Notes under the pieces: generated by a model
Told to the model about the DNA's origin: nothing
Databases searched by the model: none
What the model saw: the letters and a program-made list of their open reading frames with translations, nothing else
Position numbers and translations under genes: made by a program
NCBI GenBank assembly: GCA_001303705.1
Contig: LJUI01000004.1
Coordinates: 14,495-78,494, forward strand
Source: a candidate division TA06 bacterium SM23_40
GTDB lineage: Bacteria; LJUI01; SM1-40
DNA length: 64,000 bases
Reading direction: 5' to 3'
In this document: piece by piece, positions 26,626 to 46,989 of the stretch
How the letters are laid out: each line of letters begins with the position of its first letter
Position numbering within the stretch: position 1 is the first letter of the stretch

Positions 26626-27827
26626 AGGTGTTGTTTATCGTCACCGCTTTTCAGCGCCATGAAAAAGACGTCATCACTCCCTGGCTTCTCGAGACGATCA
26701 AGAGTCTCGGCGATCTCGGTATCGAGGTCACGGTGTTTGCTCCCTCATACCGTGGGCTCGCCGATCACACCATTAAAGGTATCCCTGTCAAGCGGTTCCG
26801 CTACTTCTTCCGTCGATGGGAGAACCTGACCCACGAAGAGACGACGCCCGACCGCCTGAAACGCGGTCTCTTTTACAAGGGACTGGTGGCATTCTATGTC
26901 CTGGGCGGTATGATTGGCATTATGCGACTCTGCGCCCGCGAACGGTACGACATTATTCATGTCCACTGGCCCTTCCCTCATGCGCTCTTCGGCTATCTGG
27001 GGCGTTGGATGTGCGGAGGACGACTTGTCTGCACGTTCTACGGGGTAGAGCTCCAGTGGGTGCTCAACAAGATGCCGGCGTTTCGCCCATTTCTCAAATG
27101 GGCGGCACGGGTTTCGGATGAGGTTGTCGCTATCTCGAGCTACACGGCAGCGATGCTCCGCAACGTGGAAGATGTTCCGATTCGCGTCATTCCGTACGGC
27201 ATCTCAGTCCGGGAGTTATCACCGCCTGTCAGACGGTCTTCCGGACCGGCGACGATCCTGTTTGTGGGGAGACTGGTAGAGCGGAAGGGTGTGGCCTTTC
27301 TGATAGATGCGTTCCAGAACCTGTGCAGGTCGTCCGATGTTCGGTTGGTGATAGTGGGAGATGGGCCGGAGAGACGGGCTCTTGAACAGAGAGCTCGTTC
27401 GAGGGGCATAGAAGGGGAGGTCCGGTTTGTCGGCCAGGTGGAAGCGGATCGACTCAAAGAGTGGTACAGGGCCTCTGATATCTTTGTGCTCCCCGCAGTC
27501 TTCGATTCGAAGGGAGATACCGAAGGGTTGGGAGTGGTGCTTCTTGAGGCGTTGAGCCACGGGAAGGCGGTAATCGCCAGTCGCGTCGGCGGTATCGTAG
27601 ACATAGTAGAAGACGGCAAGACGGGTCTTCTCGTCGAGGAGAAGGACGCGACGGCACTTGCGCGTGCGATTGAGCGCCTTCTCTCCGATCATGAGCTGTA
27701 TCGCCATATCGTCGAGGAGGGACAGAAGAGAGTCCGAGAGAGATTTCTCATCGGAGCTGTTGCCGGGCGGCTGGCGGAGACCTACGGGGCGCGAACGACA
27801 GCCCGTACTCCGGAATCGACGGATTAG
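26622..27827 (+). CDS. Glycosyltransferase family 4 (ATGA overlap with the upstream gene)
   Basis: GT-B C-terminal domain with EGLGVVLLEALSHGKAVIASRVGGI. Confidence 0.8.
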   Translation: MKVLFIVTAFQRHEKDVITPWLLETIKSLGDLGIEVTVFAPSYRGLADHTIKGIPVKRFRYFFRRWENLTHEETTPDRLKRGLFYKGLVAFYVLGGMIGIMRLCARERYDIIHVHWPFPHALFGYLGRWMCGGRLVCTFYGVELQWVLNKMPAFRPFLKWAARVSDEVVAISSYTAAMLRNVEDVPIRVIPYGISVRELSPPVRRSSGPATILFVGRLVERKGVAFLIDAFQNLCRSSDVRLVIVGDGPERRALEQRARSRGIEGEVRFVGQVEADRLKEWYRASDIFVLPAVFDSKGDTEGLGVVLLEALSHGKAVIASRVGGIVDIVEDGKTGLLVEEKDATALARAIERLLSDHELYRHIVEEGQKRVRERFLIGAVAGRLAETYGARTTARTPESTD

Positions 27828-27831
27828 AATA

Positions 27832-28584
27832 ATGCGTGACTACTATCGTCAGGTTTCCGCATCAACGAGGTACCGCGATTCGCGCCGAAAGAAGGCGAAA
27901 CTGATAGCGGACGTAATCGGGGAATTACTTGACGACGCGCAGATGATTATCGATCTGGGGTCGGGAACAGGCCTCATCAAGCAGTACCTCAGTCAGAAGA
28001 TCAAGAAGCCGATTCTGGGCATAGAGGTGGACCCGGATTTCATAGTGCAGAAGGAAGATACCGCTATTGGAACGGTGACCGAACTTCCCGTGAAGGACAA
28101 TTCCGTAGATCTTGTCCTCTGCAACCATCTCTATGAGCACGTGCAGGACCGGTCGGCGCTGTTCTCAGAGATGCGGAGGGTACTCGCCCCGTCGGGAAGG
28201 ATCTATTTGACGGTCGGGAACAGGTTCCAGCTCATGGAGCCACACTACCGCCTGCCGTTTCTCAGTTGGTGTCCTGTATGGCTTGCGAACACCTATCTGC
28301 GGGTAACCAGACGGGGGAGTGACTACCGTGATATACACTTTCCCACGTATGGCGAGCTGGTTCGTGCCGTGCGTGCTCAGTGTCTTGAGGCCGACGATAT
28401 TACGTTCGATGTGCTCTTCCGTCGCAGGCGTCTGATGAGCACACCGCTGAGGAGAGTCCTGTTGTGGGTGCTGCTCCGCCTTCCTGACAGGCTGCGGCGC
28501 GTGCTCCTGAGATGGCTGACACCTCAGTGGTTCTTGCTGCTCCATCATCAGCAGGCTGGCCGAACCATGTGGCACGGATCGTGA
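27832..28584 (+). CDS. Class I SAM-dependent methyltransferase. The ORF track starts at 27658, overlapping the GT4; ATG 27832 is more likely.
   Basis: Motif I IIDLGSGTG. Post-I acidic residue. DLVLCNHLYEHV. Confidence 0.65.
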   Translation: MRDYYRQVSASTRYRDSRRKKAKLIADVIGELLDDAQMIIDLGSGTGLIKQYLSQKIKKPILGIEVDPDFIVQKEDTAIGTVTELPVKDNSVDLVLCNHLYEHVQDRSALFSEMRRVLAPSGRIYLTVGNRFQLMEPHYRLPFLSWCPVWLANTYLRVTRRGSDYRDIHFPTYGELVRAVRAQCLEADDITFDVLFRRRRLMSTPLRRVLLWVLLRLPDRLRRVLLRWLTPQWFLLLHHQQAGRTMWHGS

Positions 28585-28586
28585 GG

Positions 28587-29522
28587 ATGTTCTCTACCGG
28601 ATCATCTGCGCGCTTGCGCGAAAGAGCTGAACGTCGTGTGTCGTGGAGGAGGATCGCCCAGGTACTCCTCGTTTCAGCTGCGGTTATCTATATCGTTCAG
28701 CGCATCATCGCGGACGCGTCGAAGCTGCTGGAATTCGACTGGCGACTGAAGCTGGGATCTCTGGCAGTCTCCTATCTGCTGCTCTTTGCCGCGTTCTCAG
28801 GCTATCCCGTTGTCTGGTGGCTACTATTGAGGGGGATGGGAGAGAGGCTCCCGCTCGGTAAGGCTTTTCGGATCTGGTATGTGTCCAATCTCGGGAGATA
28901 CGTACCCGGTAAGATCTGGCAGATAGTGGGCCGTGTGGAGTTGGCGAAGGATCTGGGTGTGGCTCGATCTACCAGTGCGGCCAGTGTCGTCTACGAGACA
29001 GGATTGATCATTACGAGCGGCATCATTGTGTTTGGAGTTGCCACGGTAGCCTCCAGAGATGCTACACCCTTCTCGTCGGTCTGGCCGATCTTTCTCGTAT
29101 TGCCCTTTGGCATAGTCCTGGCCCATCCGCGAGTCCTCTCCGCCGTGACGAATGTAGTTTTGAGGAAGGTGCGCAAGCCGGAGATAACGTTAGACGTGGG
29201 CCTGCGATGGGCGGCCTCTGTCTTGGCGCTGTACGGGATATTGTGGATCATCCAGGGAGCGGGCTTTTTCTTTCTTGTCCGGTCGTTGACGGCGGTGTCT
29301 TTTCGCTGGTTGCCACAGCTCGTGGGCGTATTTGCTGCAGCATGGATTGCCGGGTTTCTCAGTTTCATCACGCCCGGTGGTCTGGGGGTGAGGGAAGGTG
29401 TCATGACTTTTCTTCTCAGCCTGTACCTACCGCCATCGATCAGTGCTGTCGTTTCCATACTGTCGCGCATCTGGATTACTGTAGGCGAGGTTGTCTGCGC
29501 TCTTGTGTCGTCGAAAGCGTAG
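28587..29522 (+). CDS. Flippase-like membrane protein, LPG-synthase-TM/UPF0104 family (paralog 3)
   Basis: Polytopic. GKIWQIVGRVELAKDLGV and other family-typical segments. ATG 28587 lies just after the MTase stop. Confidence 0.6.
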   Translation: MFSTGSSARLRERAERRVSWRRIAQVLLVSAAVIYIVQRIIADASKLLEFDWRLKLGSLAVSYLLLFAAFSGYPVVWWLLLRGMGERLPLGKAFRIWYVSNLGRYVPGKIWQIVGRVELAKDLGVARSTSAASVVYETGLIITSGIIVFGVATVASRDATPFSSVWPIFLVLPFGIVLAHPRVLSAVTNVVLRKVRKPEITLDVGLRWAASVLALYGILWIIQGAGFFFLVRSLTAVSFRWLPQLVGVFAAAWIAGFLSFITPGGLGVREGVMTFLLSLYLPPSISAVVSILSRIWITVGEVVCALVSSKA

Positions 29523-29641
29523 AGAGGATGACCGTCGAGTGGGACGGGCGTCCTTGGGGCGGATCCTGGGATAAATGAGCGCTCTGTGCGGTAGGAGTGT
29601 ACAGTGGAAGAATCGTTCAGAATGGCCGGAGGGTCTGGGGA

Positions 29642-32062
29642 GTGAGCAAACGGAAGAAAAAGAATGAGCCGCAACGGCGAGCGAGCGGCGCTGGTCGCTC
29701 GGTTGCCTCCGGGGAGCAAGCGACGGATCGGTTGGTCGTCCCTCTGCTCCTTGCGGGCATGGTTGTTGCGATCGTCATTCTATTCCGGGACTTCATCTTC
29801 TCAGATCGCATGCTTCACGGTTCCGATGTCCTCACCTCGGCATACTATTTTCGCGTCTTCGGGAGCGAATATCTTCTCGAGCACCTCCGCTGGCCATCGT
29901 GGAATCCGTACATTTTTGGAGGGCTCCCCTTCGTTGACGCGATGCATAGCGACATATTCTATCCGACGTGGATTCTGCGGCTCCTGGTCCCGGTAGCGAG
30001 GGCGAACGGATACGTTTTCTGTATTCACATATTCCTCTCTGGTGTCGCGACCTTCTGCTTTGTTCGTTCGCTTGGAGTGGGGCGCACAGGTGCAGCCATC
30101 TCCGCGTTGGCGTACATGTTCTCGGCGGGGATAGTCTCGTTCATATTCGAGGGTCACGACGGGAGGCTCATTGTGACCTCAATGTTGCCGGTGGCGCTCC
30201 TATTCCTCCACCGTGGAATGGCCGGCAACGGGGCTTGGAACTACATCGTGGCAGGAGGGGGGGTTGGGCTCGCACTCCTGTCTCCCCAGGTGCAGATGTC
30301 GTACTATCTCGGGATAGCAGTCTCCCTCTTCTTCCTGGTGGAATTGTGGTATCGATGGCAGCGATCGCGTGATCCGAGAAAGGCGGTATCTGCGATTCTG
30401 CTTTTCGTTGCCATGGTGGGGGTCGGGTTGAGCCTCGCGGCGGTTCAGTTCCTCCCGGCGTATTCGTATCTCGAGTACTCTCCCCGGGGTGGTGGAGGGA
30501 GGGGGTACGAGTTCGCCACGTCCTGGTCGATGCCTCCGGAAGAGACGATCAATCTGGTGGCGCCTTCCTTCTCCGGGCTGCTCGAGAGCTATTGGGGGCG
30601 CAATTACTTCAAGCACCACTCGGAATATCTCGGTATCATCACGCTCGTGTTGGCCGGCACAGGAGTGGCACTCAGCCGGCGGAGGCCGTACGCCCGATTC
30701 TTTATCGGTCTGGCGGTCTTCAGTCTGATTATGGCCTGGGGTGGACACACTCCGTTGTATAGAATCGCATACTATATCATACCGAGGATCAAGCAGTTCC
30801 GCGCTCCTTCGCTGATCTTCTACCTTTTCTCGTTCTCGGTGGCTGTGCTCGCGGGATTCGGCCTTGACTCTTTGCACAGTGAAACCGGTGCGAGGGCGAA
30901 GCGGCTCATACGGGGGCTGGCAATCGTTCTCGGTGTCCTGGCAGTCTGCCTGATCGTCTGTGTGGTCGCACGCGAAGGTGTGACCCGATCGATTGCAGAC
31001 GGGGTTATTCCCTATCTCAGGGCTCACTATGCGCCGGAGATGGTTCAGATGAAGGTACGCAGCCTGGGGGCCAACTATTCCGCATTCCTTCTCTCCTTCT
31101 TCAGATCGCTGGTCGTGGCCGGTATCTCGATCGTGATCATCTGGATGCTTGTTGAGAGAAAGATACTTCCCGCGACCGGTCTGTATCTGCTGGGTCCGTT
31201 ACTTCTTTTCGATCTGCTCCTGGTGGATGCGAAGTTCGTCCGGACGGTGCAGCCAGCTGACGAGTTCTTTGCCGAGGACGAAGTGGTGAGATATCTAAAG
31301 CAGGATGACAGCGTATTCAGAGTATTCCCGTACGACCACCGACCTAACGATGACTACCTGATGCTGTTTGGCCTCCAGAGTGTAGGTGGGCACCATGGGA
31401 ATCAGCTCCAACGGTATCAGCGGTTCATCGGGGGTGCAGAGACAGTGATGTTCTACGCCCCCAATCTTCAGTACCGCAACTTCCTCGATCTGCTGAACGT
31501 CAAGTACATCGTAGCATCGAAACGGGTGCCCGCGTCGGGCCTTCCGGTGGCCCACTCTGGTGCTGCATTCAACATCCTCACAAACGAGACTGTGCTCCCA
31601 CGGGTCTTTATCGTGCCGGACTACCGTGTGGTGACAGATGATGATGCGTTGGATCTTCTGAAGCGGTCCGACTTCGATCCCAGTGCTACCGTGCTGCTGA
31701 GCGAGGATCCTGGCTTCACTCCTGTATCGAGTGATACGTCTGTGGGCGAGGCGCTGCTCATCTCGTATGAGCCCGATCGGGTGGTGGTCGAGGCTACCAC
31801 TTCGAGCACGGCTCTGCTTGTCCTGAGCGACAATTACTACCCGATGTGGAGAGCGGTGATCGATGGTCGGCCGACGAAGATCTACAGGGCCTATTACACT
31901 CTCCGGGCCGTGGTGGTGGAGCCGGGCTCGCACGCGGTAGAATTCGTGTACGATTCGATCTATCTCAAGGTCGGTTTCGTATTGAGTCTGGTTGCATCGC
32001 TGATGGTGCTGGCGGCAGGTTGCGTGGTCATTGTACAGTGGCAAAGGAGGCGCAGAGCGTGA
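29642..32062 (+). CDS. YfhO-family large polytopic membrane glycosyltransferase (GT-C-like). Start GTG 29642 with RBS GGAGGG; the ORF track starts at 29597.
   Basis: About 800 aa with 13+ TM helices and a C-terminal extracytoplasmic domain. N-terminal WPSWNPYIFGGLPFVDAMHSDIFYP resembles the YfhO family. Confidence 0.6.
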   Translation: MSKRKKKNEPQRRASGAGRSVASGEQATDRLVVPLLLAGMVVAIVILFRDFIFSDRMLHGSDVLTSAYYFRVFGSEYLLEHLRWPSWNPYIFGGLPFVDAMHSDIFYPTWILRLLVPVARANGYVFCIHIFLSGVATFCFVRSLGVGRTGAAISALAYMFSAGIVSFIFEGHDGRLIVTSMLPVALLFLHRGMAGNGAWNYIVAGGGVGLALLSPQVQMSYYLGIAVSLFFLVELWYRWQRSRDPRKAVSAILLFVAMVGVGLSLAAVQFLPAYSYLEYSPRGGGGRGYEFATSWSMPPEETINLVAPSFSGLLESYWGRNYFKHHSEYLGIITLVLAGTGVALSRRRPYARFFIGLAVFSLIMAWGGHTPLYRIAYYIIPRIKQFRAPSLIFYLFSFSVAVLAGFGLDSLHSETGARAKRLIRGLAIVLGVLAVCLIVCVVAREGVTRSIADGVIPYLRAHYAPEMVQMKVRSLGANYSAFLLSFFRSLVVAGISIVIIWMLVERKILPATGLYLLGPLLLFDLLLVDAKFVRTVQPADEFFAEDEVVRYLKQDDSVFRVFPYDHRPNDDYLMLFGLQSVGGHHGNQLQRYQRFIGGAETVMFYAPNLQYRNFLDLLNVKYIVASKRVPASGLPVAHSGAAFNILTNETVLPRVFIVPDYRVVTDDDALDLLKRSDFDPSATVLLSEDPGFTPVSSDTSVGEALLISYEPDRVVVEATTSSTALLVLSDNYYPMWRAVIDGRPTKIYRAYYTLRAVVVEPGSHAVEFVYDSIYLKVGFVLSLVASLMVLAAGCVVIVQWQRRRRA

Positions 32063-32775
32063 GGACCCTGGTGGTCGTTCCGACATACAACGAAAAGGAA
32101 AACATCGAGCGGATCATCGAGGAGGTGCTGGCCACCAATCCTGAGGTAGAGATATTGGTCGTGGACGATAACTCGCCGGACGGTACAGGGGAGATTATCG
32201 ACCGCCGTTCAGAACAGGAGCCCAGAGTGCACGTCCTCCACCGGGAAGGAAAGCTCGGTCTGGGATCGGCCTATGTTGCGGGCTTCAAGTATGCAATTCG
32301 GGAGGGGTATGACGCCGTATTCGAAATGGATGCCGATTTCTCTCACGATCCGAAGGTGATTCCGGAGTTCCTCAAGAAGCTTGTTGACTACGATCTGGTC
32401 CTCGGGTCGAGGTACCTCGACGGCGTGAGCGTCATCAACTGGCCGATGTCAAGGCTGCTGCTGAGCTATTTCGCCAATATCTACGCTCGAGTTGTCACCG
32501 GCGCTCCGATCCGTGATCTCACGGGTGGATACAAGTGTTTCCGGAGGGAAGTGCTCGAGGCTATCGACCTGGATAAAATCCATTCAGACGGATATGCGTT
32601 CCAGATCGAGATGGACGTCAAGACCTGGAGGAAAGGGTTCAGGGTGCTGGAGATCCCCATCATTTTCGTTGAGCGGGGAGTAGGTACGTCCAAAATGTCG
32701 CGGCGCATCATATGGGAAGCGCTGTGGCTGGTGTGGCGTCTGCGTTTCGCCTCCTTGCTCGGGAGATTGAAGTGA
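32059..32775 (+). CDS. Polyprenol-phosphate mannose/hexose synthase, DPM1/Ppm1-like GT2 (GTG start, GTGA overlap with yfhO-like stop)
   Basis: LVVVPTYNEKENIERIIEEVL...ILVVDDNSPDGTGEII...KLGLGSAYVAGFKYA...MDADFSHDP. Classic DPM1 signature. Confidence 0.85.
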   Translation: MRTLVVVPTYNEKENIERIIEEVLATNPEVEILVVDDNSPDGTGEIIDRRSEQEPRVHVLHREGKLGLGSAYVAGFKYAIREGYDAVFEMDADFSHDPKVIPEFLKKLVDYDLVLGSRYLDGVSVINWPMSRLLLSYFANIYARVVTGAPIRDLTGGYKCFRREVLEAIDLDKIHSDGYAFQIEMDVKTWRKGFRVLEIPIIFVERGVGTSKMSRRIIWEALWLVWRLRFASLLGRLK

Positions 32776-33557
32776 GGGAGTTGGATTTATCGATAGTGAT
32801 CATACACTATCGCATGGTTGATGATCTTCTCAGGTGTCTCGCCTCGATCTATGATCGGAAATGGGACGTCGCGTTCGAAGTACTCATCATCCACAAGCCC
32901 TCCGGTGATCGCTCCCGACAGACGATCGTCGAATCGTATCCAGCTGTGAGAATAGTCGAGACCTGTCGATTCGGCATCGCCTCGATGCGCAACCTGGGGA
33001 TCGCCGGTGCTTCAGGTCGCATTCTGTGTACGCTCGATGCGGACGTCGAAGTTCTTCCCGGCGCGTTCGATCGATTGGTGGAGTTCATGGATACGCACGC
33101 CGGCGCAGCAGGTGCCGGACCGAAGACACTGCGGCCCGATGGTAGCCTCGAGCCGAGCTGTCGGAGGTTCTATACGGTGCGGACGTTATTGGCGCGGCGG
33201 ACACCGCTGCGCCCCCTGATCGGAGGTGACCGGCTCGAACGAGTCCATCTGATGGAAGACTGGGATCACGGCAGCGTGCGTGAGGTCGACTGGGTCGCCG
33301 GAGCATGCATTGTGATGAGCAGGGACGCTGTCGGTGCCATCGGGATGTTCGATGAGTCGTTTGTGTACGGATTTGAGGACGTCGATTGGTGCTATCGAGC
33401 TCGCCTTAGCGGGCGGACGGTCTACTACGTGCCGGATGCGAGTATCATACACCACGTGCAGCGGAGGAGCGCGAGAGGTCTTAACTGGATGACCCTCCAA
33501 CATCTGAAGAGCGCGTTCCACTTCTACCATAAACACCGTCGGCAACGTCGATGGTGA
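32772..33557 (+). CDS. GT2 glycosyltransferase (rhamnosyl/hexosyl transferase-like), GTG start with GTGA overlap
   Basis: LSIVIIHYRMVDDLLRCLASI. DADVEVLPG (DxD). GFEDVDWCYRA motif typical of GT2. Confidence 0.75.
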   Translation: MRELDLSIVIIHYRMVDDLLRCLASIYDRKWDVAFEVLIIHKPSGDRSRQTIVESYPAVRIVETCRFGIASMRNLGIAGASGRILCTLDADVEVLPGAFDRLVEFMDTHAGAAGAGPKTLRPDGSLEPSCRRFYTVRTLLARRTPLRPLIGGDRLERVHLMEDWDHGSVREVDWVAGACIVMSRDAVGAIGMFDESFVYGFEDVDWCYRARLSGRTVYYVPDASIIHHVQRRSARGLNWMTLQHLKSAFHFYHKHRRQRRW

Positions 33558-33574
33558 ACAGAGGCCCTGATTCG

Positions 33575-35023
33575 ATGACTGCGACCTTTCTCGTCCCTCC
33601 GCCGCTGGAGGGGACCCGCGTGCCGGAGCGCGTCTTCGGGTGCAACTACGGGCTGTACCCCATACCCAATATCTTCATGCTTATCGCGGCAGCATTGCTG
33701 GAGAGGAATGGATACCAGGTCTCCGTGGTGGACGCCGCCATCGCCCGCTGGACACGGGAGCGGTTTGCCCGATTCCTCGCCTCCGACAGCAGTTCGGTCT
33801 ACGTCATCTATTCCGTCGAGTTGGCGAAGAAGACGGATCGTCTCGCCTGGAACATGATCCGGGAGGCACGCGGCTCGATACCGGTCATCTTTGCCGGACC
33901 GGCTCCCACGTATGATCCTGATGGGTATCTCCTCGACGAGGAGACGATCATCGTAAGGGGGGAGGTGGAGATGACGATCGATGGGATCGTGGGGGCGATC
34001 GCCCGTGGTTCTTCGTGGGGAGGAATCGCCGGCATCTCCTACATGCATGGATCGCGCGCGATCCATGCACCAAGTCGAGCGCTGATCGAGGACCTGGATT
34101 CGCTGCCCTTCCCTGCCCGGCACCTGGTCGATCGGACGAAGTACTATAACCCGAAACTGGGATTGACGCCCAATACTGCTGTCCTCACGAGCAGGGGCTG
34201 CGGTTACTCATGCATCTACTGCGTACCCTGTTCGCTCAGTTTCGCCAGAGAGCTTGAGTATAAGGCCGCTCACGGCCGGAAACCGCCGGTCCGGCTCCGT
34301 TCGGTCGACAATGTGCTCGCCGAGCTCTCGCAGCTGGCACAGGCTGGTTATCGCAGCGTCAGCTTCCTCGATGACCAGTTCGTCTGGGGGGAGCGGCGCA
34401 CCGTTGCCCTATGTGAGGGAATCGCCAAACTCGGGCTCACGTGGGGATGTCTCGCGCGGGCAGATGTCTTGACAGAACCCATCGTACGGGCGATGGCTGT
34501 GAGTGGCTGCCGGTATGTCGATGTCGGCGTCGAGTCATTCGACCAGCGTGTGCTCGACTTCGTGCGCAAAGACATGACGGTAGGGGAGGCCGAACGCGGT
34601 ATATGCCTGCTCACCGAGCATGGGATCATGGCCAAGTTGAATATTCTGATTGGCGCCGCACCGTTCGAGACGAAGGAGACGTTCCGCAACAACTTCGCGG
34701 CGATCGACCGGCTGAGGCCCAATGCGGTAATGTTCAGTATCTGCACGCCGTTTCCCGGTACGGATCTGTACGAGCTAGCTGTCGAGAATGGGTGGCTTGC
34801 CCGTGACGGGTATCGGGCAGTCGATGTCCAGAAAGAGGCGTTGCTCGATCTGCCCTTCTTGAGCGCCAGTGAACTGGAGAGACTCGCGCATCGGGCCAAC
34901 ATACGCTTTTATCTCAATCCGGCGGTGGTGTGGCGTAACATCCGATCCGCACAGAGTTCGGAGTCGCTCGTCCAGATGTTCTCAGTTCTCCGGGGGAAGC
35001 TTCGTCATTCGGGCGGAACCTAG
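33575..35023 (+). CDS. B12-binding-domain radical SAM enzyme (class B rSAM; alternative start ATG 33551)
   Basis: N-terminal Rossmann-like B12-binding region. rSAM cluster motif RGCGYSCIYCVP (Cx3Cx2C). C-terminal TIM-barrel remainder. Confidence 0.8.
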   Translation: MTATFLVPPPLEGTRVPERVFGCNYGLYPIPNIFMLIAAALLERNGYQVSVVDAAIARWTRERFARFLASDSSSVYVIYSVELAKKTDRLAWNMIREARGSIPVIFAGPAPTYDPDGYLLDEETIIVRGEVEMTIDGIVGAIARGSSWGGIAGISYMHGSRAIHAPSRALIEDLDSLPFPARHLVDRTKYYNPKLGLTPNTAVLTSRGCGYSCIYCVPCSLSFARELEYKAAHGRKPPVRLRSVDNVLAELSQLAQAGYRSVSFLDDQFVWGERRTVALCEGIAKLGLTWGCLARADVLTEPIVRAMAVSGCRYVDVGVESFDQRVLDFVRKDMTVGEAERGICLLTEHGIMAKLNILIGAAPFETKETFRNNFAAIDRLRPNAVMFSICTPFPGTDLYELAVENGWLARDGYRAVDVQKEALLDLPFLSASELERLAHRANIRFYLNPAVVWRNIRSAQSSESLVQMFSVLRGKLRHSGGT

Positions 35024-35037
35024 ACAAGGAAAGCAGC

Positions 35038-36240
35038 ATGGCCACAAGGGTCGACGTGCTCGCCTACCTCATAGCAGCCCTGCTCGCCGCTGTTCTCGTT
35101 ATGATGTTGACGCCAGCGGTGAGACGGCTTGTGATTCGCTTCGGATTGCTTGACAGACCCGCAGACCGCAAAGTGCACACGTCTGCGATCCCCCAACTCG
35201 GCGGGATCGCGATCTACGTGTCGTTTGTCGTCGCCGCGAGCTTGGGCGTTCTCGTTTTGGGCGCCAGAGATCTGATCCCTGGCCTTGGAGCACTGCTCGC
35301 CGCCGGTCTGATTGTTGTGGGCCTTGGCATATATGATGATCTGATGACGGCTTCAGCACGTGTGAAACTGCCGGTTCAGATCATCGCGGCGCTCCTCATC
35401 GTGGGGTTCGGATTCCGGATCCACTCGATAACGAACCCGGTGGGCGGCGTGATCAGGCTGACGTGGATCTCAGTGCCGGTGAGTGTCGTCTGGCTCGTGG
35501 CGTTTATGAACGCGCTCAACCTCGTCGATGGGCTGGACGGTCTGGCGGCCGGTCTCGCAGCCATTGCGGCGGCGACGCTCTTCGTGGGTGGATTGATGTT
35601 CGGGAATCAGTTCTCGAGTGTATTGATGGCTGCCCTGTTTGGTGTCTGTGTAGCCTTCCTCTACTTCAACTTCCACCCCGCGTCGATCTTCATGGGAGAC
35701 ACCGGCAGCCTGTTCCTCGGGCTCGTGTTCGGCACAGTTGGGCTGGCGGAAGGTGGGAAGAGTGTGGCGTTGATCGTCCTCCTCGTTCCGCTCACTGCAC
35801 TGGGTGTGCCCCTCATTGACACCGTGATGGCCGTCTGTCGGCGGACGGCGAGACGTCGCTACATCTTCGCCGGTGACAAGGAGCACATACATCATCGCCT
35901 GCTCGGTCTCGGGTTCTCTCATCGGCAGGTCGTCCTCATACTCTACGGTCTGGCAGCGCTCTTGGGTATGGTGGCATTAGCACTTGCCACGGCAAACCGA
36001 GCAATCATCCTCTTCTTTTCGGCGACGGCAGCCGGGTTCGCTGGATGGGGTGCAGTCCGCCTCAGGATAATCGGTCCGGAGCGGAGGAATCGGATCAGCT
36101 CACAGGCCGGATCTCCTGGCGAGAGCGGGTCGGAACAGGTATCTACACTGCCGGGCAATTCCTCCCGGTCGCCGATGGATGGGGTATTGGCGCGCGGCGA
36201 TCGCCATCCGGGCAGGGGTGAACTGAGGGGAGATGATTGA
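35038..36240 (+). CDS. WecA/TagO/MraY-family polyprenol-phosphate HexNAc-1-phosphate transferase (priming glycosyltransferase)
   Basis: About 10 TM helices. DDLMT. NALNLVDGLDGLAAG. Resembles VF.GD.GS..LG. Confidence 0.85.
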   Translation: MATRVDVLAYLIAALLAAVLVMMLTPAVRRLVIRFGLLDRPADRKVHTSAIPQLGGIAIYVSFVVAASLGVLVLGARDLIPGLGALLAAGLIVVGLGIYDDLMTASARVKLPVQIIAALLIVGFGFRIHSITNPVGGVIRLTWISVPVSVVWLVAFMNALNLVDGLDGLAAGLAAIAAATLFVGGLMFGNQFSSVLMAALFGVCVAFLYFNFHPASIFMGDTGSLFLGLVFGTVGLAEGGKSVALIVLLVPLTALGVPLIDTVMAVCRRTARRRYIFAGDKEHIHHRLLGLGFSHRQVVLILYGLAALLGMVALALATANRAIILFFSATAAGFAGWGAVRLRIIGPERRNRISSQAGSPGESGSEQVSTLPGNSSRSPMDGVLARGDRHPGRGELRGDD

Positions 36241-36256: not shown

Positions 36257-38498
36257 ATGATGCAGCGAGTTTCGGTCCGCCTGGCATACATGATGTCCCT
36301 GGCCGCAGGGCTCATCTTCGCCTCAGGCTGGATGATGCAGGTTGCGGCGAGGTCATGTCAGGGCGAGAGCTGGACCACGTATACGAATGCCAACTTCGTC
36401 GAGGACATAGTAGACGTCGATGATCGCCTATGGTGCGCTACCGGTGGCGGAGTCGCCCGCTGACACCACTGAACTCGATTTCACGGTCTTCACGAATGTC
36501 GATGGGCTTCCTGTGCTGGAGGTACGCGCGGTAGAGGTAGATGAATGGGGCAACATCTGGGTGGGCACAGAGGGAGGGGGGCTCGCCGTCGGGCAGGGCG
36601 AGGGTGCCACCTGGGCTACCTATCCCTCCTTTCAGCTCGAGCCAGAGAATATCCGTTCGCTCCTGGGCCGCGCTGATACGTTGTGGGTCTGCACAGACGA
36701 AGGACTGGCGCTCATCACGACTCGGATGACGGCCGACTGGAGCGACGACGAGATCGATCTCTTCACTGAGTCGGACGGACTCGCCAACGCGGACGTGAAT
36801 GTGGCTCTTGTGGCCGACAGCATCCTGTGGGTGGGGACTGTGGACGGCCTCAACAGGGTGCGGCTCGACGGGTTGGGAGATCCGGCTCAGTGGCAGGTGA
36901 TACGGATGGAGGATGGGCTGGCGAGCGACGTCGTTCTCAGCCTCGCCGTGCAGCCCGGTCTCGTATGGGCCGGAACGGATGAGGGGATCTCTCGCTGGGA
37001 TGGGAGCCAATGGGTATCGCAGCTGGCCGGCCTCGAGGTACGCCAGGTGGCAGTTGGGGGTGACAGCGTCTGGGCAACTACCGACGACGGGGTCTGGCGT
37101 TACCATGTCGACGGAGGGTGGTCAGACGTCACCGGCGAGCTGCCATTGCGAGATGCGGTAGCGGTCCACGTCGACAGCGGAGGTCACGTCTGGATTGGCT
37201 TGGGAAGCGGGCGAACAAGCAGCCGGCGTCTCTATGGCGAGGGGTTGGCCAGAAGAGGAGGGGACGGCTGGGAGCGGTATCTGTCAAACGGACTGGCATC
37301 GAATGCAGTGGCGGACGCAGTACTCGACCTCGACGGGACACTCTGGTGCACCCACTTCCCCGGCGGAGTGAGCCACCTTACTGCCGAGGGGTGGGAGACA
37401 TTTACCAGGGCTACGACCGAGGGCATGTTGGGAAGCGACTTCGTACTCTGGTGCGCGGTCGATAGCAGGGGCGACAAGTGGTTCGGGACCTGGGGCGGGG
37501 GAGTCTCCCGGCTGACTGCCGATGGTCAGTGGCTGCTCTATGACCAAGACAACAGTCCGCTCCAGACCGAGCTCGTCGGCGCCCTGACGGTCGACAGGCA
37601 TGACAATGTCTGGATCTTCGACTATCAGAATGCTCTGTACGTCCGCTCCGGAGATGACTCGACCTGGACCCGACTCGATCTTGCAGGGGAAGATGCCATC
37701 TTCGACATCGCGGTCGATGAGCAGGACATCGTATGGACAGGATCGTACGATCGGGGGATCAGGCGGCTCGACTACGCAGGTACGCTGAACGATCCTTCGG
37801 ATGATGCGGTGACTGCTTACTCGGTGGAGCACGGCCTTGCCAGTCCAGGTGTGAGGGCGGTAGCGAACGGCGCAGGGGCGACAATGTGGTTCGGGACCAC
37901 GGGCGGTGCGAGTCAGTTCGATGGGACAGATTTCACAACTTACCGAAGGGCGACGTCAGGCCTTCTGTCGGACTTCGTGAGCGATGTCGTCGTCGACGGG
38001 TGGGGATGCGTCTGGTTCCTTACCGATGGCGGCGTCTCCGTGCTCGAGCCGGGCGGGATCTGGCGCTCGTACACGAGCCAGAATAGCGGGCTCGTCTCCG
38101 GGACGATAGGTGATTGGAGCAATGCCCTCCTCATTGATGAGTCACAGGAGCGCGCCTGGATCGGAACAGTGTGGGGGCTCTCTTGCCTCAGTTTCATCCC
38201 CCCGTTTCCGCGTCCGGACGGCCTCGCCTCGGTTCGGGCCTATCCGAATCCCTTCGTGCCGTCGCTGGGACATCGTATAGTGCACTTCGCCTCCTTGCCC
38301 GAAGATGCCGAGGTATGCATCTTTGGGTTGGGCGGGGAGCTCGTCTGGGAGTCGGGCAGGGGTGCGGTCTCGAATGGGGAGATCAGCTGGTCGGTTGTGA
38401 ATTCCCGTGGGAAGGAGGTTGCAGGCGGCATCTATATCTATCTTGTGCGCGTTGCCGGGGGCGAAGTGCGAACAGGACGAGTGGCCGTGGTCCGGTAG
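36257..38498 (+). pseudogene. Secreted two-component-regulator-propeller-type beta-propeller repeat protein with C-terminal FlgD-Ig/T9SS-like sorting domain, apparently interrupted by a +1 frameshift near 36455-36465. The signal peptide sits in ORF 36257-36463 and the rest in ORF 36420-38498.
   Basis: ORF 36257 encodes a signal peptide plus the first repeat (DRLWCATGGGVAR). ORF 36420 continues the same repeat series (DEWGNIWVGTEGGGLAV...). C-terminus AYPNPFVP...IYIYLVRVAGGEVRTGRVAVVR. Confidence 0.6.
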
Positions 38499-38539
38499 AG
38501 GATGCCGGCCCTGAGCCCGTCAGACGTTCGGAGCTTCTG

Positions 38540-39142
38540 ATGAACGAGACCTACATACATCCAACAGCTGATGTCTCCGATAAGGCGATCGTCGGCGCGG
38601 GCACGAAAGTCTGGCACCAGGCCCAGGTACGTGAGAATGCAGTGATCGGGCCCGACTGCATCATCGGCAAGGGTGTCTATGTCGACCACGACGTCGTGAT
38701 AGGGTCCAACGTGAAGATCCAGAACAACGTCTCGCTATACAATGGCGTCACGCTGGCTGACGACGTCTTCATCGGTCCACATGTCACATTCACGAACGAC
38801 CTGTACCCTCGTTCCTTCGATCCGGAGTGGCATGTCTTGCCCACGCTCGTCGGTCGGGGAGCATCGATCGGCGCCAATGCCACGATCATCTGTGGAGTGA
38901 CGATAGGTGCATTCGCCATGATCGGGGCAGGGGCAGTGATTGCCGCAGATGTGCCGGACCACGGACTGGTGTATGGGAATCCCGCGCGGCTCAGGGGGTT
39001 CGCCTGTCAGTGCGGCAGGCCCGTGACGTACGAATCGAGGAAGCACGACACGGTTGTGCTCTTATGCCAGTCGTGTGGGGAAAGACTTGAGGTGAGCCGA
39101 GAGCTGTACGAACTCTCGACAAGGCCTGAGCATATTCCATAG
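38540..39142 (+). CDS. Left-handed beta-helix (hexapeptide) sugar N-acetyl/acyltransferase (WbbJ/PglD/WlbB-like)
   Basis: Hexapeptide repeats IGPDCIIGKGVYVDHDVVIGSNVKIQNNVSLYNGVTLADDVFIGPHV...IGANATIICGVTIGAFAMIGAGAVI. Confidence 0.75.
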   Translation: MNETYIHPTADVSDKAIVGAGTKVWHQAQVRENAVIGPDCIIGKGVYVDHDVVIGSNVKIQNNVSLYNGVTLADDVFIGPHVTFTNDLYPRSFDPEWHVLPTLVGRGASIGANATIICGVTIGAFAMIGAGAVIAADVPDHGLVYGNPARLRGFACQCGRPVTYESRKHDTVVLLCQSCGERLEVSRELYELSTRPEHIP

Positions 39143-39188: not shown

Positions 39189-40331
39189 ATGGACGTACCG
39201 GTTGCCAAGCCGTTCTTCTCCAACGAGGAGGTGGAGGCAGTTCGCCAGGTCATCGCCAGCGGATGGGTCTCCCAGGGGCCCAAGGTGCGGGAGTTCGAGC
39301 AGGCATTTGCTGCCTTTGTCGGCACGCGGGAGGCGGTGGCAGTCTCTTCCTGCACCGCAGCCCTTCATCTCTCCCTCGCCGCCTTGGGCATCAGGGAGGG
39401 GGATGAAGTGATCCTTCCCGCATTCACGTTCGTGGCGAGCGCTAATGTCGTGCTCTATCAGCGCGCCGTGCCCGTTCTCGCCGACATCGACCTCGACTCG
39501 TATACCATCGATCCAGACGATGTGGAGCGATGCCTCTCGCCGCGGACCAAGGCGATCATGCCCGTCCATCTCTTTGGACTTGCCGCTGACATGGATCCGC
39601 TGCTCGAGACTGCCGCCCGCCATGGGGTATCGGTTGTGGAGGACGCCGCCTGCGCTCACGCCGCGACTCATCGTGGGCGAAACGTGGGCACCTTCGGCAC
39701 AGTAGCCTGTTTCAGTTTTCACCCCCGCAAGCTTTTGAGCACCGGGGAGGGTGGTATGATAACGACCGATGACGCGGATCTCGCACGAAGGCTGAGGTCC
39801 CTCCGCTCGCACGGGGGGTCGGTCGAGGCCTACGAGAGACATGCGGCACGGTCGGTAGCGGAACCGAAGTTTGTGGAGCTCGGCTACAACTATCGGTTGA
39901 CGGACATACAGGCCGCCATTGGATTGGTGCAGCTCTCGAGGGCAGGTCAGATGCTCGAGCAGCGGCGGAAACTGGCGGATAGGTATGGAGAATCGCTCAA
40001 GGGGCTCAGGTGTCTGAGACTGCCGATGGAACCAGCCAGGGCTCTGCACACGTTTCAATCATATGTCGTGCGCGTGACGGAGGAATGTCAGGTCACGAGA
40101 GATGAGGTGATGGAGCAGCTTCAGTTGCGCGGGATCAGCACCCGGCGGGGGACTAACGCCATTCATCATGAACCGCTGTACCGTGGTCTGGTCCCTGCGG
40201 AGCCGGCGAAACTGAAGAGAAGTACTCATGCCGAGCAGAGCACGCTTGCCCTCCCGCTCTATCCGTCGATGACCGATGACGAGCAGGATGCGGTGATAGA
40301 GGCTCTGAGGGAGGTTCTTGCAAAGGAGTAG
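39189..40331 (+). CDS. DegT/DnrJ/EryC1/StrS-family PLP-dependent sugar aminotransferase
   Basis: N-terminal VAKPFFSNEEVEAV..VIASGW.SQGP.V.EFE. PLP-lysine region FSFHPRKLLSTGEGGMI. Confidence 0.85.
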   Translation: MDVPVAKPFFSNEEVEAVRQVIASGWVSQGPKVREFEQAFAAFVGTREAVAVSSCTAALHLSLAALGIREGDEVILPAFTFVASANVVLYQRAVPVLADIDLDSYTIDPDDVERCLSPRTKAIMPVHLFGLAADMDPLLETAARHGVSVVEDAACAHAATHRGRNVGTFGTVACFSFHPRKLLSTGEGGMITTDDADLARRLRSLRSHGGSVEAYERHAARSVAEPKFVELGYNYRLTDIQAAIGLVQLSRAGQMLEQRRKLADRYGESLKGLRCLRLPMEPARALHTFQSYVVRVTEECQVTRDEVMEQLQLRGISTRRGTNAIHHEPLYRGLVPAEPAKLKRSTHAEQSTLALPLYPSMTDDEQDAVIEALREVLAKE

Positions 40332-42860: not shown

Positions 42861-44252
42861 ATGCGGTCTACGCTACTGCTGGTACAGACGATTATCGTTA
42901 CCATCTTGGTACTGGCGGCGACGGGTCTGGGAGACGGATACGATCCGACGACCCTGGTCTTTCCACCCTATGGTCACACTATGGGGTATCACAAGGCCAC
43001 GTCGTTCCATCTCCGCCTTCTGTTGGGCTCGACGGTTCGATTCCGAAACCCGCAGGGTGTTGCGGTGGTGCGGTTGCGATCGACGGACGACCCTGTCGAT
43101 CATCATGATGATGACGAAGTCTCCGTGTACGCTGTGAATTCGGATGCCCATCAGATCGTTCACAATCGGTCATTGACGGACGTCGATATCTTCGGGCGTT
43201 TCGGTAGGGGGGAAGGTGAGTTCTGGAGCCCGCGGGGCATCGCCGCCAACGCCGATGGTGATGTCTACGTGGCCGATACGGAGAACCATCGCATCGTGCA
43301 TCTGCACGATGACGGTGAGGGGCTCTCGTTCGCGAAGACGATCGGGAAGTTCGGTGCCGCTCCAGGGGAGTTCGACCGCCCGAGAGGGGTGGCGCTCGAC
43401 GCACGAGGGACCATATACGTGACCGATACCGGGAATCATCGTGTACAGGTCTTCTCGTCGGAGGGCGATTTCGTGCGCTCGATCGGAGACCCGCGAGGGG
43501 GCCGGGGGCGGGTCGAACATCCTGATGGGATCGCGGTCTACGATGGACGTGACCAGTGGTCATTCTATGAGGATCGGTCTCTCTATGTCGTCGATCAGCA
43601 CGGGGAGCGTATTCAGCAGTTCTCTCTCGACGGTAGACTCATTGCCGCGGTGAAGATGTCTGACATCGGGGTGACAGACGCCGACATCGCATATCTGGCT
43701 GTCGACTACTACGGAAACCTCTATGCCACCGACATGAGTAATCATCGAATTCATAAGTTCGATCGGTCGCTCCGCTACATCATCTCTTATGGACGGTACG
43801 GCACAGGCGACAAGGAATTCGATTCGCCGCGAGGCATCGGTATCTGGAAGCGATTTGGACAGGTGTTCATAGTGGAGAGAGAGGGTGCACAGTACTACTG
43901 GGTTGGGGTCGACGCATCGATCCGGGGGATCTTTCCCAGGACATTCGGGATCGAGCACAGCGGGACGACGCTGTCGCTCTATCTCACAGAAGCATGCGAA
44001 GTGAACGTGAGCATCTCGGATGAGAACAAGAATGTGGTGCGGCGGCTCGTGCCGGAGTTATGGCGTGAACTGGGTGAGCACGAGATCGTCTGGGATGGCC
44101 TCGATGATGCACGTCGGCCGGTCCCTCCGGGCGTCTATCGCCTCAATGTCACCGTCGAGCCGACCTACTCGTCCAAAGGGTATTTCAAGAAAGAGCTGAC
44201 AGCGACAGTCGTCAAGGTCGAGGAGACGGAGGATCTATCCTCGCGCGGATAG
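42861..44252 (+). CDS. Secreted NHL-repeat beta-propeller protein with C-terminal FlgD-Ig-like domain
   Basis: Signal peptide. Repeated P.GIA....G..YV.DT.NHR...F units (NHL). C-terminal VSISDENKNVVRRLV...HEIVWDGLDDARRPVPPGVYRLNV. Confidence 0.7.
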   Translation: MRSTLLLVQTIIVTILVLAATGLGDGYDPTTLVFPPYGHTMGYHKATSFHLRLLLGSTVRFRNPQGVAVVRLRSTDDPVDHHDDDEVSVYAVNSDAHQIVHNRSLTDVDIFGRFGRGEGEFWSPRGIAANADGDVYVADTENHRIVHLHDDGEGLSFAKTIGKFGAAPGEFDRPRGVALDARGTIYVTDTGNHRVQVFSSEGDFVRSIGDPRGGRGRVEHPDGIAVYDGRDQWSFYEDRSLYVVDQHGERIQQFSLDGRLIAAVKMSDIGVTDADIAYLAVDYYGNLYATDMSNHRIHKFDRSLRYIISYGRYGTGDKEFDSPRGIGIWKRFGQVFIVEREGAQYYWVGVDASIRGIFPRTFGIEHSGTTLSLYLTEACEVNVSISDENKNVVRRLVPELWRELGEHEIVWDGLDDARRPVPPGVYRLNVTVEPTYSSKGYFKKELTATVVKVEETEDLSSRG

Positions 44253-44302: not shown

Positions 44303-45349
44303 TTGCGGGGGAATCGAATTCTCTGGGGCATTGTGGGCACCGTCACTTTCGCGTTCTGGTGTGCGGAGATGGCAGAGGGAACGAAGTATGCAGGTGAGTA
44401 CCTCACGCTAGGTGTCGGCGGTCGTGCACTCGGACTCGGAGGCGCCTATGTCTCCATGGCAGATGATGTCACTGCCTCCTATTGGAATCCGGCCGGTCTG
44501 GCACTGCTCGACAGGCGTGAGATGTCATTCATGCACGCGGAGAACTTCGCTGGTATCGTTCAGTACGACTTCCTGGCATATGGTCAGGCATGGGGCGACT
44601 CTACGAGGCCGTCCGGCGTCGGGATAGGTCTGGTGCGTCTCGGCGTCGATGAAATTCCGGTAACGAGCACTCTTGAGTTGCTCGATTACGGGCTGGATGG
44701 AGAGCCCAACACGGGTGACGAGGGAGAGGGAAACGGTCGCCTGGACGTAAACGAGCGGATCGTATATGACGAGGACAAGATATCATGGACAAGCGACAAT
44801 GAGATAGCGGTCTACCTTAGCTACGGCCGTGGCATGTCATCGTCTCTCTATCTCGGGGGAAGCGTGAAAATCCTCGGAAAATTCCTCTACGAGAATAGTG
44901 CGGTCGGGATCGGCGCCGACGTTGGGGCACTATACAGACCTCGGTCCTGGCTCACAGTAGGAGCTGTGCTGCAGGATATGACGACAAGTCCGCTGGTGTG
45001 GAATACTGGTACACGCGAGACGATAACGCCGACTCTGAGGGCCGGCCTCAGTTCCCGCCACCTTGTGGAGAGGTTCGAAGGCGACCTGACGCTGGCGGCA
45101 GGAACTGATGTGCGGTTCGAGGAACAGAGTCTCGGCAGCACTCTATCTTCTGGCGGAGTAAGTCTTGACCTCCATGTTGGCGCCGAGTACCGATATCGTG
45201 ACATGGTTGGAGTCCGCCTGGGTGCTGATCGTGGCCGACTCACTGCCGGGGCGGGGTTCTCGGTGCGGATGTTCCTGGCGGATTATGCGTTTCTCGCCCA
45301 CGAAGATCTGGGAAATAGCCACCGCGTCTCTCTTGGTGTTCAGTTCTGA
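44303..45349 (+). CDS. Outer-membrane beta-barrel protein of the FadL/PorV/PorQ-like (UPF0164) type
   Basis: Signal peptide. GVGGRALGLGGAYVSMADDVTASYWNPAGLA motif near the N-terminus. Alternating amphipathic strands. C-terminal aromatic residue (..GVQF). Confidence 0.5.
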   Translation: MRGNRILWGIVGTVTFAFWCAEMAEGTKYAGEYLTLGVGGRALGLGGAYVSMADDVTASYWNPAGLALLDRREMSFMHAENFAGIVQYDFLAYGQAWGDSTRPSGVGIGLVRLGVDEIPVTSTLELLDYGLDGEPNTGDEGEGNGRLDVNERIVYDEDKISWTSDNEIAVYLSYGRGMSSSLYLGGSVKILGKFLYENSAVGIGADVGALYRPRSWLTVGAVLQDMTTSPLVWNTGTRETITPTLRAGLSSRHLVERFEGDLTLAAGTDVRFEEQSLGSTLSSGGVSLDLHVGAEYRYRDMVGVRLGADRGRLTAGAGFSVRMFLADYAFLAHEDLGNSHRVSLGVQF

Positions 45350-46765: not shown

Positions 46766-46840
46766 GCGGGAATAGCTCAGTGGTAGAGCGCCACCTTGCC
46801 AAGGTGGATGTCGCGGGTTCAAGTCCCGTTTCCCGCTCCA
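46766..46840 (+). tRNA. tRNA-Gly (anticodon GCC), 75 nt with encoded CCA
   Basis: Near-identical to canonical bacterial tRNA-Gly: GCGGGAATAGCTCAG...CCTTGCCAAGG...TTCCCGCTCCA. Confidence 0.9.
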
Positions 46841-46913: not shown

Positions 46914-46989
46914 GGCGGCATAGCCAAGTGGTTAAGGCGACGGTCTGCAAAACCGTTATGCTCCGGTTCGAATCCGGATGCCGCCTCCA
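46914..46989 (+). tRNA. tRNA-Cys (anticodon GCA), 76 nt with encoded CCA
   Basis: GGCGGCATAGCCAAGTGG... Anticodon stem-loop ACGGTCTGCAAAACCGT. T-arm CCGGTTCGAATCCGG. 3' end GCCGCCTCCA. Confidence 0.85.

Follow-up and report, generated by a model that had tools for sequence, protein, structure and literature searches.

Radical S-adenosylmethionine (SAM) enzymes tailor the sugars of antibiotics (AprD4, GenK, DesII and BtrN) and of lipid head groups (HpnJ and Cds), the substrates of GenK and GenD1 being sugars themselves. To our knowledge, no such tailoring has been described for the mainstream routes in which O-antigens, S-layer glycans and similar polymers are assembled on polyprenyl carriers. 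Among the closest described enzymes, AprD4 is a diol dehydratase that acts on a 1,2-diol of an aminoglycoside sugar and whose N-terminal domain binds no cobalamin (PMC12931638). HpnJ has been proposed, on genetic evidence only, to carry out a pyranose-to-cyclitol ring contraction on a lipid-linked glucosamine, and the radical SAM calditol synthase Cds (Saci_1489) to turn a hexose installed on a membrane lipid by a glycosyltransferase (GT) into a carbocycle (PMC13459092). HpnJ, BchE and OxsB are all non-methylases (PMC9204698; for HpnJ also PMC13459092). Here we describe a radical SAM gene located in a 64,000-nucleotide stretch of the genome of candidate division TA06 bacterium SM23_40 (contig LJUI01000004.1, positions 14,495 to 78,494 of the forward strand; hereafter the window, with position 1 as its first letter), where it stands between family-2 glycosyltransferase (GT2) genes and a gene of the WecA/MraY family of phosphoglycosyl transferases (PGTs). 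Its product is a radical SAM enzyme whose barrel is preceded by a Rossmann-like domain, and members of its family are encoded in operons with a WbbL-like GT2 and/or an initiating PGT, WecA-type in the window and PglC-type elsewhere, once as a fusion. Judged from sequence and gene order, the family probably consists of radical enzymes that tailor glycan primers. We tentatively propose that the TA06 enzyme, a member of an uncharacterised family, modifies a sugar in the step with which the assembly of polyprenyl-linked envelope glycans begins, with a non-methylating outcome favoured.

The radical SAM protein and its family

The radical SAM open reading frame (ORF) occupies positions 33551..35023 of the plus strand (490 codons, 490 aa) and scores 46.5 bits against Pfam Radical_SAM (PF04055; cut-off 29.5; E 5.9e-12). 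The true start of the gene is probably the second ATG, at 33575 (coding sequence 33575-35023, 482 aa), because a GAGG precedes it by 10 nt, homologues start at the equivalent methionine, and the database entry P0001, which is 100% identical to the protein, is 482 aa in length. The CX3CX2C motif of the [4Fe-4S]/SAM cluster, RGCGYSCIYCVP (residues 215-226, nt 34193-34228, plus strand), is strictly conserved, C217-x3-C221-x2-C224 being unchanged in all 55 homologues aligned. An AlphaFold (AF2) model built from this 55-sequence alignment (pLDDT 92.6, pTM 0.91) consists of a Rossmann-like, cobalamin-domain-like N-terminal domain (approximately residues 10-160) followed by a radical SAM TIM-barrel core (approximately residues 205-400). 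Membership in PF04055 is supported on both counts, the profile score lying above the gathering threshold and the model matching radical SAM folds; the gene and its Cx3Cx2C cluster are thus as a first-pass annotation, made from the letters of this DNA alone, had described them. A long beta1-alpha1 loop, R27-V-F-G30-C31-x4-Y36 (33641..33670, plus strand), is specific to the family and invariant in the 55 members, its wider form reading R-x-x-G-C-x4-Y-x2-P-N. This loop sits where cobalamin domains carry their 'His loop', and its cysteine aligns with a cysteine of OxsB.

A word-indexed search returned 988 relatives at E <1e-10, the closest of which is 74% identical to the window protein. A tight group at 43-55% identity comes from Brocadiaceae (anammox Planctomycetota), Nitrospirota, Sumerlaeota, Thermodesulfobacteriota, Acidobacteriota, CSSED10-310 and a metagenome-assembled genome of Aenigmatarchaeota, and none of the family members carries a functional name. 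By profile comparison the family forms a discrete clade, with a mean column identity of 54-59% and long signature motifs; an exhaustive profile search delimited a core of ~25 clusters at 50% identity, scoring above ~440 bits, beyond which relatives form a continuum. A literature search found no description of this family, of a fusion between a radical SAM enzyme and a PGT, or of a radical SAM step on a polyprenyl-linked glycan. Radical SAM enzymes that tailor sugars are already known; the family and its position in a pathway are new. The family member P0138 (842 aa) is interrupted by an intein with LAGLIDADG homing endonuclease and helix-turn-helix domains. P0185 and P0211, more distant HpnJ-like relatives that reach ~290 bits against the family profile, combine a strong B12-binding domain (83-91 bits) with a fused C-terminal class-I SAM methyltransferase domain.

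Glycosyltransferase and initiating-transferase neighbours

In the window, the radical SAM gene is preceded by two GT2 genes, GT2a (32059..32775, plus strand, 238 aa) and GT2b (32772..33557, plus strand, 261 aa), both given here with corrected starts, and followed by a polytopic PGT gene of the WecA/MraY family (35038..36240, plus strand; Glycos_transf_4, 128.8 bits), as the first-pass annotation had it. GT2a and GT2b are translationally coupled through a GTGA overlap, as are GT2a and the YfhO-like gene upstream of it; gaps of 17 nt and 14 nt separate the radical SAM gene from GT2b and the Glycos_transf_4 gene, respectively. GT2a resembles short polyprenyl-phosphate sugar synthases, its matches to the AglJ, PpgS, dolichyl-phosphate-hexose transferase and ArnC models all being sub-threshold. 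GT2b is a WbbL/MftF-like enzyme, 100% identical to AMJ71_06540 of candidate division TA06 bacterium SM1_40. From its profile match, the product of the downstream gene is predicted to be the initiating enzyme that loads a sugar-phosphate onto polyprenyl phosphate; since it scores 126 bits against the WecA model TIGR02380 (cut-off 326), it is best described as a WecA/MraY-family protein, its identity as WecA itself being unproven.

To see how general this arrangement is among relatives, 125 loci were reduced to 51 clusters at 80% identity and their neighbouring genes were clustered in turn. A GT2 gene lay within four genes of the radical SAM gene in 36 of the 51 loci, mostly at position -1 or +1 and on the same strand. 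The commonest direct neighbour was an orthologue of GT2b (84-252 bits), adjoining the radical SAM gene in 21 of the 51. GT4-fold transferases were found nearby in 16 loci by BLAST clustering and in 12 by phmmer with the window GT4, and further recurrent neighbours were PglC-type (Bac_transf) PGTs (5 loci), WecA-type PGTs (4) and NodU-type sugar carbamoyltransferases (4). The fraction of genes encoding a GT or PGT was 0.50 at +/-1, 0.20 at a distance of two genes, 0.13 at three and 0.05 at four or more, yielding an odds ratio of 19.9 for adjacent genes versus those at least four genes away (p 1.7e-18), and a GT or PGT was present within two genes of the radical SAM gene in 37 of the 44 non-redundant loci with genes on both sides. 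The association with glycosyltransferases is therefore strongly conserved in relatives, which strengthens the glycan context from which an unusual sugar had originally been proposed for the product of this cluster.

Four arrangements recur, namely types A and B, a cassette in anammox genomes and a gene fusion, the last two of which are described further on. In type A, GT2b stands beside the radical SAM gene, often together with a WecA-like gene (the window, L128, L096, L101 and L133). In type B, a radical SAM gene, a GT4-fold GT and a small PglC-like PGT follow one another with 3-5 bp spacers (L102, L092, L106 and L117), and in L090 the GT4 and the PGT are fused. The 74%-identical relative (L041) keeps the order of the window, with YfhO-type, GT2a, GT2b, radical SAM, WecA-type and PorZ-like genes in succession, and is also syntenic for the aminotransferase and acetyltransferase genes further downstream. 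Several GT2b homologues bear the automatic JGI name WbbL rhamnosyltransferase; WbbL acts on polyprenyl-diphosphate-linked GlcNAc, which is the product of WecA. In one locus (L130) the association is covalent, P0121 being a single natural protein of 675 aa in which a family radical SAM enzyme, 42% identical to that of the window and scoring 666 bits against the family profile, is joined to a Bac_transf domain (PF02397, 224 bits), with a carbamoyltransferase gene alongside. Two unrelated superfamilies of initiating PGTs are thus tied to the family, the WecA type through adjacency and the PglC type through both adjacency and fusion. A literature search for phosphoglycosyl transferase, radical SAM and fusion together returned no paper linking the three.

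Some loci contain further radical SAM genes. Anammox genomes carry a cassette made of a radical SAM/SPASM gene, the family radical SAM gene and a GT2 gene, inserted between purF and purM, which are bona fide housekeeping genes bordering it. The SPASM-type partner (~330-356 aa; 8995-9993 in L043 and 10046-11113 in L102) recurs in anammox loci and in one type-B locus; its best model is a tungsten-cofactor maturase, at a score far below the cut-off. Two other loci (L133, 921-8756, and L035, 6836-11780) each hold three B12-type radical SAM genes with GT2, GT4, WecA-like and Wzy_C genes. In each, a single one of these B12-type genes is a member of the present family, and the other two have the canonical GGPH/GEGE motifs. 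It may be that radical SAM enzymes commonly tailor envelope glycans in these uncultured lineages.

The fusion also raises the question of which form of the sugar the enzyme would act upon. In known PGT fusions such as Neisseria PglB, the partner of the transferase is an enzyme that works on the UDP-linked donor sugar, and P0121 follows the same design with a PglC-type domain. It is conceivable, if improbable, that the radical SAM enzyme modifies a soluble nucleotide sugar (e.g. a UDP-HexNAc derivative, HexNAc standing for N-acetylhexosamine) before the PGT acts, as a step of donor-sugar synthesis beside the dehydratase, aminotransferase and acetyltransferase of the locus. In keeping with such a role, the enzyme adjoins or is fused to the initiating transferase, the fusion locus L130 has no glycosyltransferase, the downstream aminotransferase and acetyltransferase are syntenic in L041, and AprD4 turns a soluble substrate into a keto sugar. 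However, the commonest partner of the family is a GT2 that would act after the initiating transferase rather than a nucleotide-sugar enzyme, no nucleotide-sugar enzymes recur among the family neighbours in the 51 loci, and HpnJ, the nearest relative by sequence, works on a sugar linked to a membrane lipid.

In 7 of the 44 loci the radical SAM gene is an orphan, standing alone among housekeeping genes for thiamine (thiE/thiC/thiL), the dcw cluster or NAD salvage. Such loci, and likewise the recurrence of thiE near the radical SAM gene in three loci, would suit a substrate other than a glycan, either a cofactor or a lipid, the latter being the polyprenyl carrier or the head group of a hopanoid or ether lipid, with the GT neighbours reflecting no more than a shared envelope theme; HpnJ, the ladderane candidate and other relatives are indeed lipid enzymes. 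We regard this explanation as very improbable given the sharp enrichment of GT and PGT genes (0.50 versus 0.05), which extends across phyla and two unrelated PGT superfamilies, and given the covalent fusion to a PGT. Neither hopanoid nor other lipid-synthesis genes were present among the window genes scanned or the recurrent neighbours, and the hopanoid genes shc, hpnH, hpnI and hpnK in particular were absent from the ~48 window ORFs scanned and from the recurrent neighbours. The notion that the family is not linked to glycans, which came from five long contigs with a lone radical SAM gene, was overturned by the survey of 51 loci. As a separate observation, thiE (TMP-TENI) is close to and divergent from the radical SAM gene in L043 (6440-7162), L045 (7071-7724) and L046 (5814-6464), with ThiC and ThiL-like genes beside it in two of the three. 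A thiamine link was considered for these thi genes and no functional link was found.

Relation to described enzymes and possible chemistry

Every curated NCBIfam model that matched the window protein did so at a score far under its own cut-off. HpnJ (TIGR03471) came first (177.7 bits, cut-off 577.6; residues 58-469), followed by the AprD4 family diol dehydratase (NF033070; 127.7 bits, cut-off 500; core only, residues 178-442) and BchE (TIGR02026; 99.5 bits, cut-off 481). HpnJ was likewise the best-matching model for all 55 family members (best member E 1e-63, short of the equivalog cut-off), all of which gave the same order of HpnJ, AprD4 and BchE by best E-value. Among the next-nearest 94 relatives, HpnJ was the best model in 86, and 0 of the 94 reached its cut-off; the family thus sits inside a large uncharacterised HpnJ-like radiation. 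The curated cut-offs rule out a true HpnJ, AprD4 or BchE identity. Two further candidates were rejected on the same grounds: the ladderane-lipid radical SAM enzyme (TIGR04072), considered for the anammox homologues (58 bits, cut-off 360), and BzaD of B12 lower-ligand synthesis, considered for the nearby thiE/thiC/purF/purM genes (56 bits against 450). Because all curated models are so far below their cut-offs, the protein also falls outside the BchE, HpnP/HpnR and porphyrin clades; a placement in one of these non-glycan clades had been singled out beforehand as a threat to the glycan idea, which survives. The nearest curated model, HpnJ, has a sugar as its target.

Comparison to solved structures led to the same neighbourhood. 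In a phmmer search of the PDB, AprD4 (6FD2) was the best match (E 3e-31, residues 179-446 only), the next-best reaching E 5e-5 and CysS E 0.006, while TokK and TsrM were found by the family profile only; the family profile itself scored 133 bits against AprD4, aligning in the core only. Foldseek with the AF2 model also placed AprD4 (6FD2) on top (E 3.6e-25, TM 0.73/0.79), ahead of TsrM, CysS, MgmA, OxsB and TokK.

The first-pass annotation had proposed a C-methylation of the GenK/Fom3 type. Enzymes of the GenK/Fom3/GenD1 type do share the layout of a Rossmann-like domain and a radical SAM core with the window protein, but no GenK- or Fom3-type model was among its curated matches, the cobalamin-domain motifs of the family are degenerate, and the nearest models (HpnJ, AprD4 and BchE) all describe non-methylases, so that this specific proposal found no support. 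More broadly, the family could comprise cobalamin-dependent class-B C-methyltransferases which, using methylcobalamin and two SAM molecules per turnover, would introduce a branched or C-methyl sugar into the glycan. The majority of annotated class-B enzymes are methylases (PMC9204698), and methylase models do match the window protein: the P-methylases at 85-98 bits (Sden_1168 98, PhpK 85), HpnR at 68, the methyl-coenzyme M reductase (MCR) glutamine C-methylase at 50, a C-methyltransferase acting on ribosomally synthesised and post-translationally modified peptides at 44 and KedN5 at 33. All of these score under the non-methylase models, which argues against placing the protein with the characterised class-B C-methylases, and the nearest structure is a non-methylase too. 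Clusters L133 and L035, in which the family gene is accompanied by canonical class-B paralogues, are typical of multi-methylation pathways; conventional SAM methyltransferases found in the same loci could nonetheless account for O-methyl groups. On balance we consider C-methyltransfer by this family unlikely, though by no means negligible.

The N-terminal domain is central to this question. It had been annotated as a B12-binding Rossmann domain, of which the Rossmann-like fold is borne out by the AF2 model and the binding of B12 receives mixed support. PF02310 scores 26.0 bits on this domain, under the gathering score of 32.1, and is absent or weak in several members. The GGxH(x)T and GEGE motifs of cobalamin domains are replaced in the window protein by F-A-G-P-A-P-T and R-G-E-V-E, and in the family by (x)GPAPT and RGE(P/V)E, whereas GGPHPS and GEGE are intact in the canonical B12-dependent radical SAM paralogues of the same clusters; a single-sequence search of PDB sequences with the N-terminal domain alone gave no match. 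In contrast, alignments made with the family profile match the N-terminal domain to the cobalamin domains of OxsB (E 8e-16, both domains), CysS (1e-12), TokK (1e-6) and TsrM, including the Ser/Thr-x-Asn under the corrin (PMC9204698). The G-x-S-x-N motif that OxsB has in this place corresponds to T/S-V-N in the family, the window protein having a glutamate for the asparagine, and the GG motif is degenerate in OxsB as well. A search of the surroundings of the module, in the window and in five loci, detected tRNAs only and no cobalamin or other riboswitch. From the profile alignments, cobalamin binding by the N-terminal domain of the family appears plausible.

None of the described enzymes offers a complete parallel. 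HpnJ aligns over nearly the full length of the window protein, is a non-methylase proposed to rearrange a sugar, and pairs with a GT2 (HpnI) that first puts a hexosamine on a membrane lipid. The GT2 partner in the window is WbbL/MftF-like, however, rather than HpnI-like (the HpnI model reaches 32 bits in the anammox partner); there is no deacetylase partner and no hopanoid gene among the window ORFs scanned, and the HpnJ-like radiation has the canonical GGxH/GEGE motifs, both of which the studied family has lost. AprD4 is the closest solved structure by sequence and fold, has a Rossmann-like N-terminal domain and acts on an aminohexopyranoside, but the similarity is limited to the core (179-446), its N-terminal domain works without cobalamin whereas that of the family aligns with true cobalamin domains, and it belongs to secondary metabolism (apramycin) rather than to an envelope glycan. 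OxsB (PDB 5UL2-4), which aligns over both domains and shares the long His-less beta1-alpha1 loop and the single-Gly GG motif (PMC9204698), is a cobalamin-dependent, ring-contracting non-methylase that works on a sugar ring; it differs in its ~15% identity, its extra N- and C-terminal domains, its CX4CX2C motif and its nucleotide substrate. Cds, compared by description only, follows the logic of 'GT first, radical rearrangement second', yet is archaeal and has a tetraether lipid substrate.

Taking these comparisons together with gene order, we propose the following sequence of events. The WecA-family enzyme would load a HexNAc-type sugar-1-phosphate onto polyprenyl phosphate, giving polyprenyl-diphosphate-HexNAc, and GT2b would add a second sugar. 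The radical SAM enzyme would reductively cleave SAM, and the resulting 5'-deoxyadenosyl radical would take a ring-carbon hydrogen from its substrate, either the lipid-diphosphate-linked mono- or disaccharide or the nucleotide sugar used by the transferase. Several fates may then await the substrate radical: dehydration to a keto-deoxy sugar in the manner of AprD4; abstraction at C5, after which the ring would open and C1 would couple to C5 to form a carbocycle, a route suggested for HpnJ and Cds (PMC13459092); methyl transfer from methylcobalamin; or epimerisation, with the invariant Cys31 as a candidate hydrogen donor. The modified glycan would finally be flipped and completed by the products of the remaining locus genes. 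Provided that the family does tailor glycan primers, we see an even chance of a non-methylating reaction and a somewhat lower one of C-methylation. A deoxygenation or ring rearrangement is somewhat likelier than C-methylation because HpnJ and AprD4 are the nearest relatives. A pyranose-to-carbocycle ring contraction of the HpnJ/calditol-synthase type on the first sugar or sugars of the polyprenyl-diphosphate-linked glycan is, by analogy, a quite unlikely special case.

A number of observations weigh against the proposed non-methylating modification of a primer-linked sugar. HpnJ, the nearest curated relative, is itself known from genetics only, and homology to the characterised relatives (~25-30%) is too low to fix the chemistry. 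No AprD3-like reductase (short-chain dehydrogenase/reductase or reductase cluster) and no HpnK-like deacetylase recurs beside the radical SAM gene in the 51 loci, so that the gene neighbourhoods follow the pathway logic of neither AprD4 nor HpnJ. The likeness of the N-terminal domain to true cobalamin domains and the canonical class-B paralogues sharing clusters L133 and L035 are both compatible with methylation, as is the methyl group on the reducing-end HexNAc of the S-layer glycan of the anammox bacterium Kuenenia, which is known from mass spectrometry only and whose regiochemistry is not fixed (PMC5088730). The PGT fusion, for its part, fits a lipid-linked and a nucleotide-linked substrate alike. 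To these must be added the orphan loci described above and the finding that two of the three GT2b orthologues examined, both of them close, have no adjacent radical SAM gene, which makes the pairing of GT2b with the radical SAM gene frequent rather than obligate in gene order. One of the unpaired orthologues comes from the same sample as an orphan radical SAM contig, and the two partners may simply be unlinked there.

The surrounding envelope-glycan locus and significance of the family

The radical SAM gene belongs to a large envelope-glycan locus (15.8-40.3 kb) that also holds two nucleoside-diphosphate-sugar dehydratase/epimerase genes, a UDP-glucose dehydrogenase gene and GT4 genes. Upstream of the GT2 pair lies a gene for a large polytopic membrane protein with a YfhO-type C-terminus (29597..32062, plus strand), a putative GT-C enzyme using a polyprenyl-phosphate-sugar donor that precedes GT2a in L041 as well. 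It is preceded by a gene for an LPG_synthase_TM (UPF0104) 'flippase-like' membrane protein (28512..29522, plus strand), part of the third of the modules described below, and by one for a class-I SAM-dependent methyltransferase (Methyltransf_11; 27658..28584, plus strand; probable start near 27832), a candidate for conventional O- or N-methylation and the separate methyltransferase noted in the first pass. Downstream of the WecA-like gene are genes for a PorZ-like beta-propeller with Reg_prop repeats (36420..38498, plus strand; PorZ model 113 bits, cut-off 260), which keeps its place after the WecA-like gene in L041, a sugar N-acetyltransferase of the NeuD/PglB/VioB family (38171..39142, plus strand; start probably near 38540, the L041 orthologue being 200 aa long) and a sugar aminotransferase of the DegT/ArnB/PseC family (39189..40331, plus strand).

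Between 17901 and 32775, the window contains three successive copies of one three-part module made of a polyprenyl-phosphate-sugar-synthase-like GT2 (20060, 24634 and 32059), an LPG_synthase_TM/UPF0104 'flippase-like' protein (19061, 25600 and 28512) and large polytopic membrane proteins (22781, with a weak PMT match, and 29597, with the YfhO-type C-terminus). The domain content suggests three parallel decoration systems in which a lipid-phosphate-sugar would be made, flipped and transferred on the outside, the MprF-type domain serving as putative flippase. Genes related to the type IX secretion system (T9SS) flank the glycan locus, namely those for the PorZ-like protein (36420-38498), an NHL-repeat protein (42861-44252) and a PorV/PorQ-family protein (44303-45349; PorV_fam, 102.9 bits, over the cut-off of 90); as a speculation, T9SS cargo may in TA06 be anchored to this glycan polymer. 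Just upstream of the locus lie genes for a 1200-aa Ser/Thr kinase with AAA_16 and TPR domains (12128-15730) and for a sigma-54 activator with a GAF domain (10118-12079), both of them possible regulators of the locus. Three tRNA genes (6224-6297, 46766-46837 and 46914-46986) were the sole Rfam matches in the window at the gathering threshold.

The family is found widely among uncultured anaerobes and among anammox bacteria, which are of industrial importance. Its tie to initiating transferases, once by fusion, leads us to predict that the surface glycans of these organisms bear, at the reducing end or close to it, a sugar modification not yet described. Should ring contraction prove to be the reaction, the envelope glycans of TA06, anammox and other anaerobic phyla would carry a hydrolysis-resistant cyclitol or rearranged pseudo-sugar near the reducing end, and a lipid-linked oligosaccharide of cell-surface glycan assembly would, for the first time, be known as the substrate of a radical SAM enzyme. 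The sets of GT2b, radical SAM and WecA-type genes, or of radical SAM, GT4 and PglC-type genes, are small enough for reconstitution in E. coli, and the question is therefore directly testable. Such work would open the large HpnJ-like radiation to biochemical study for the first time, no assay having been made of its founding member.

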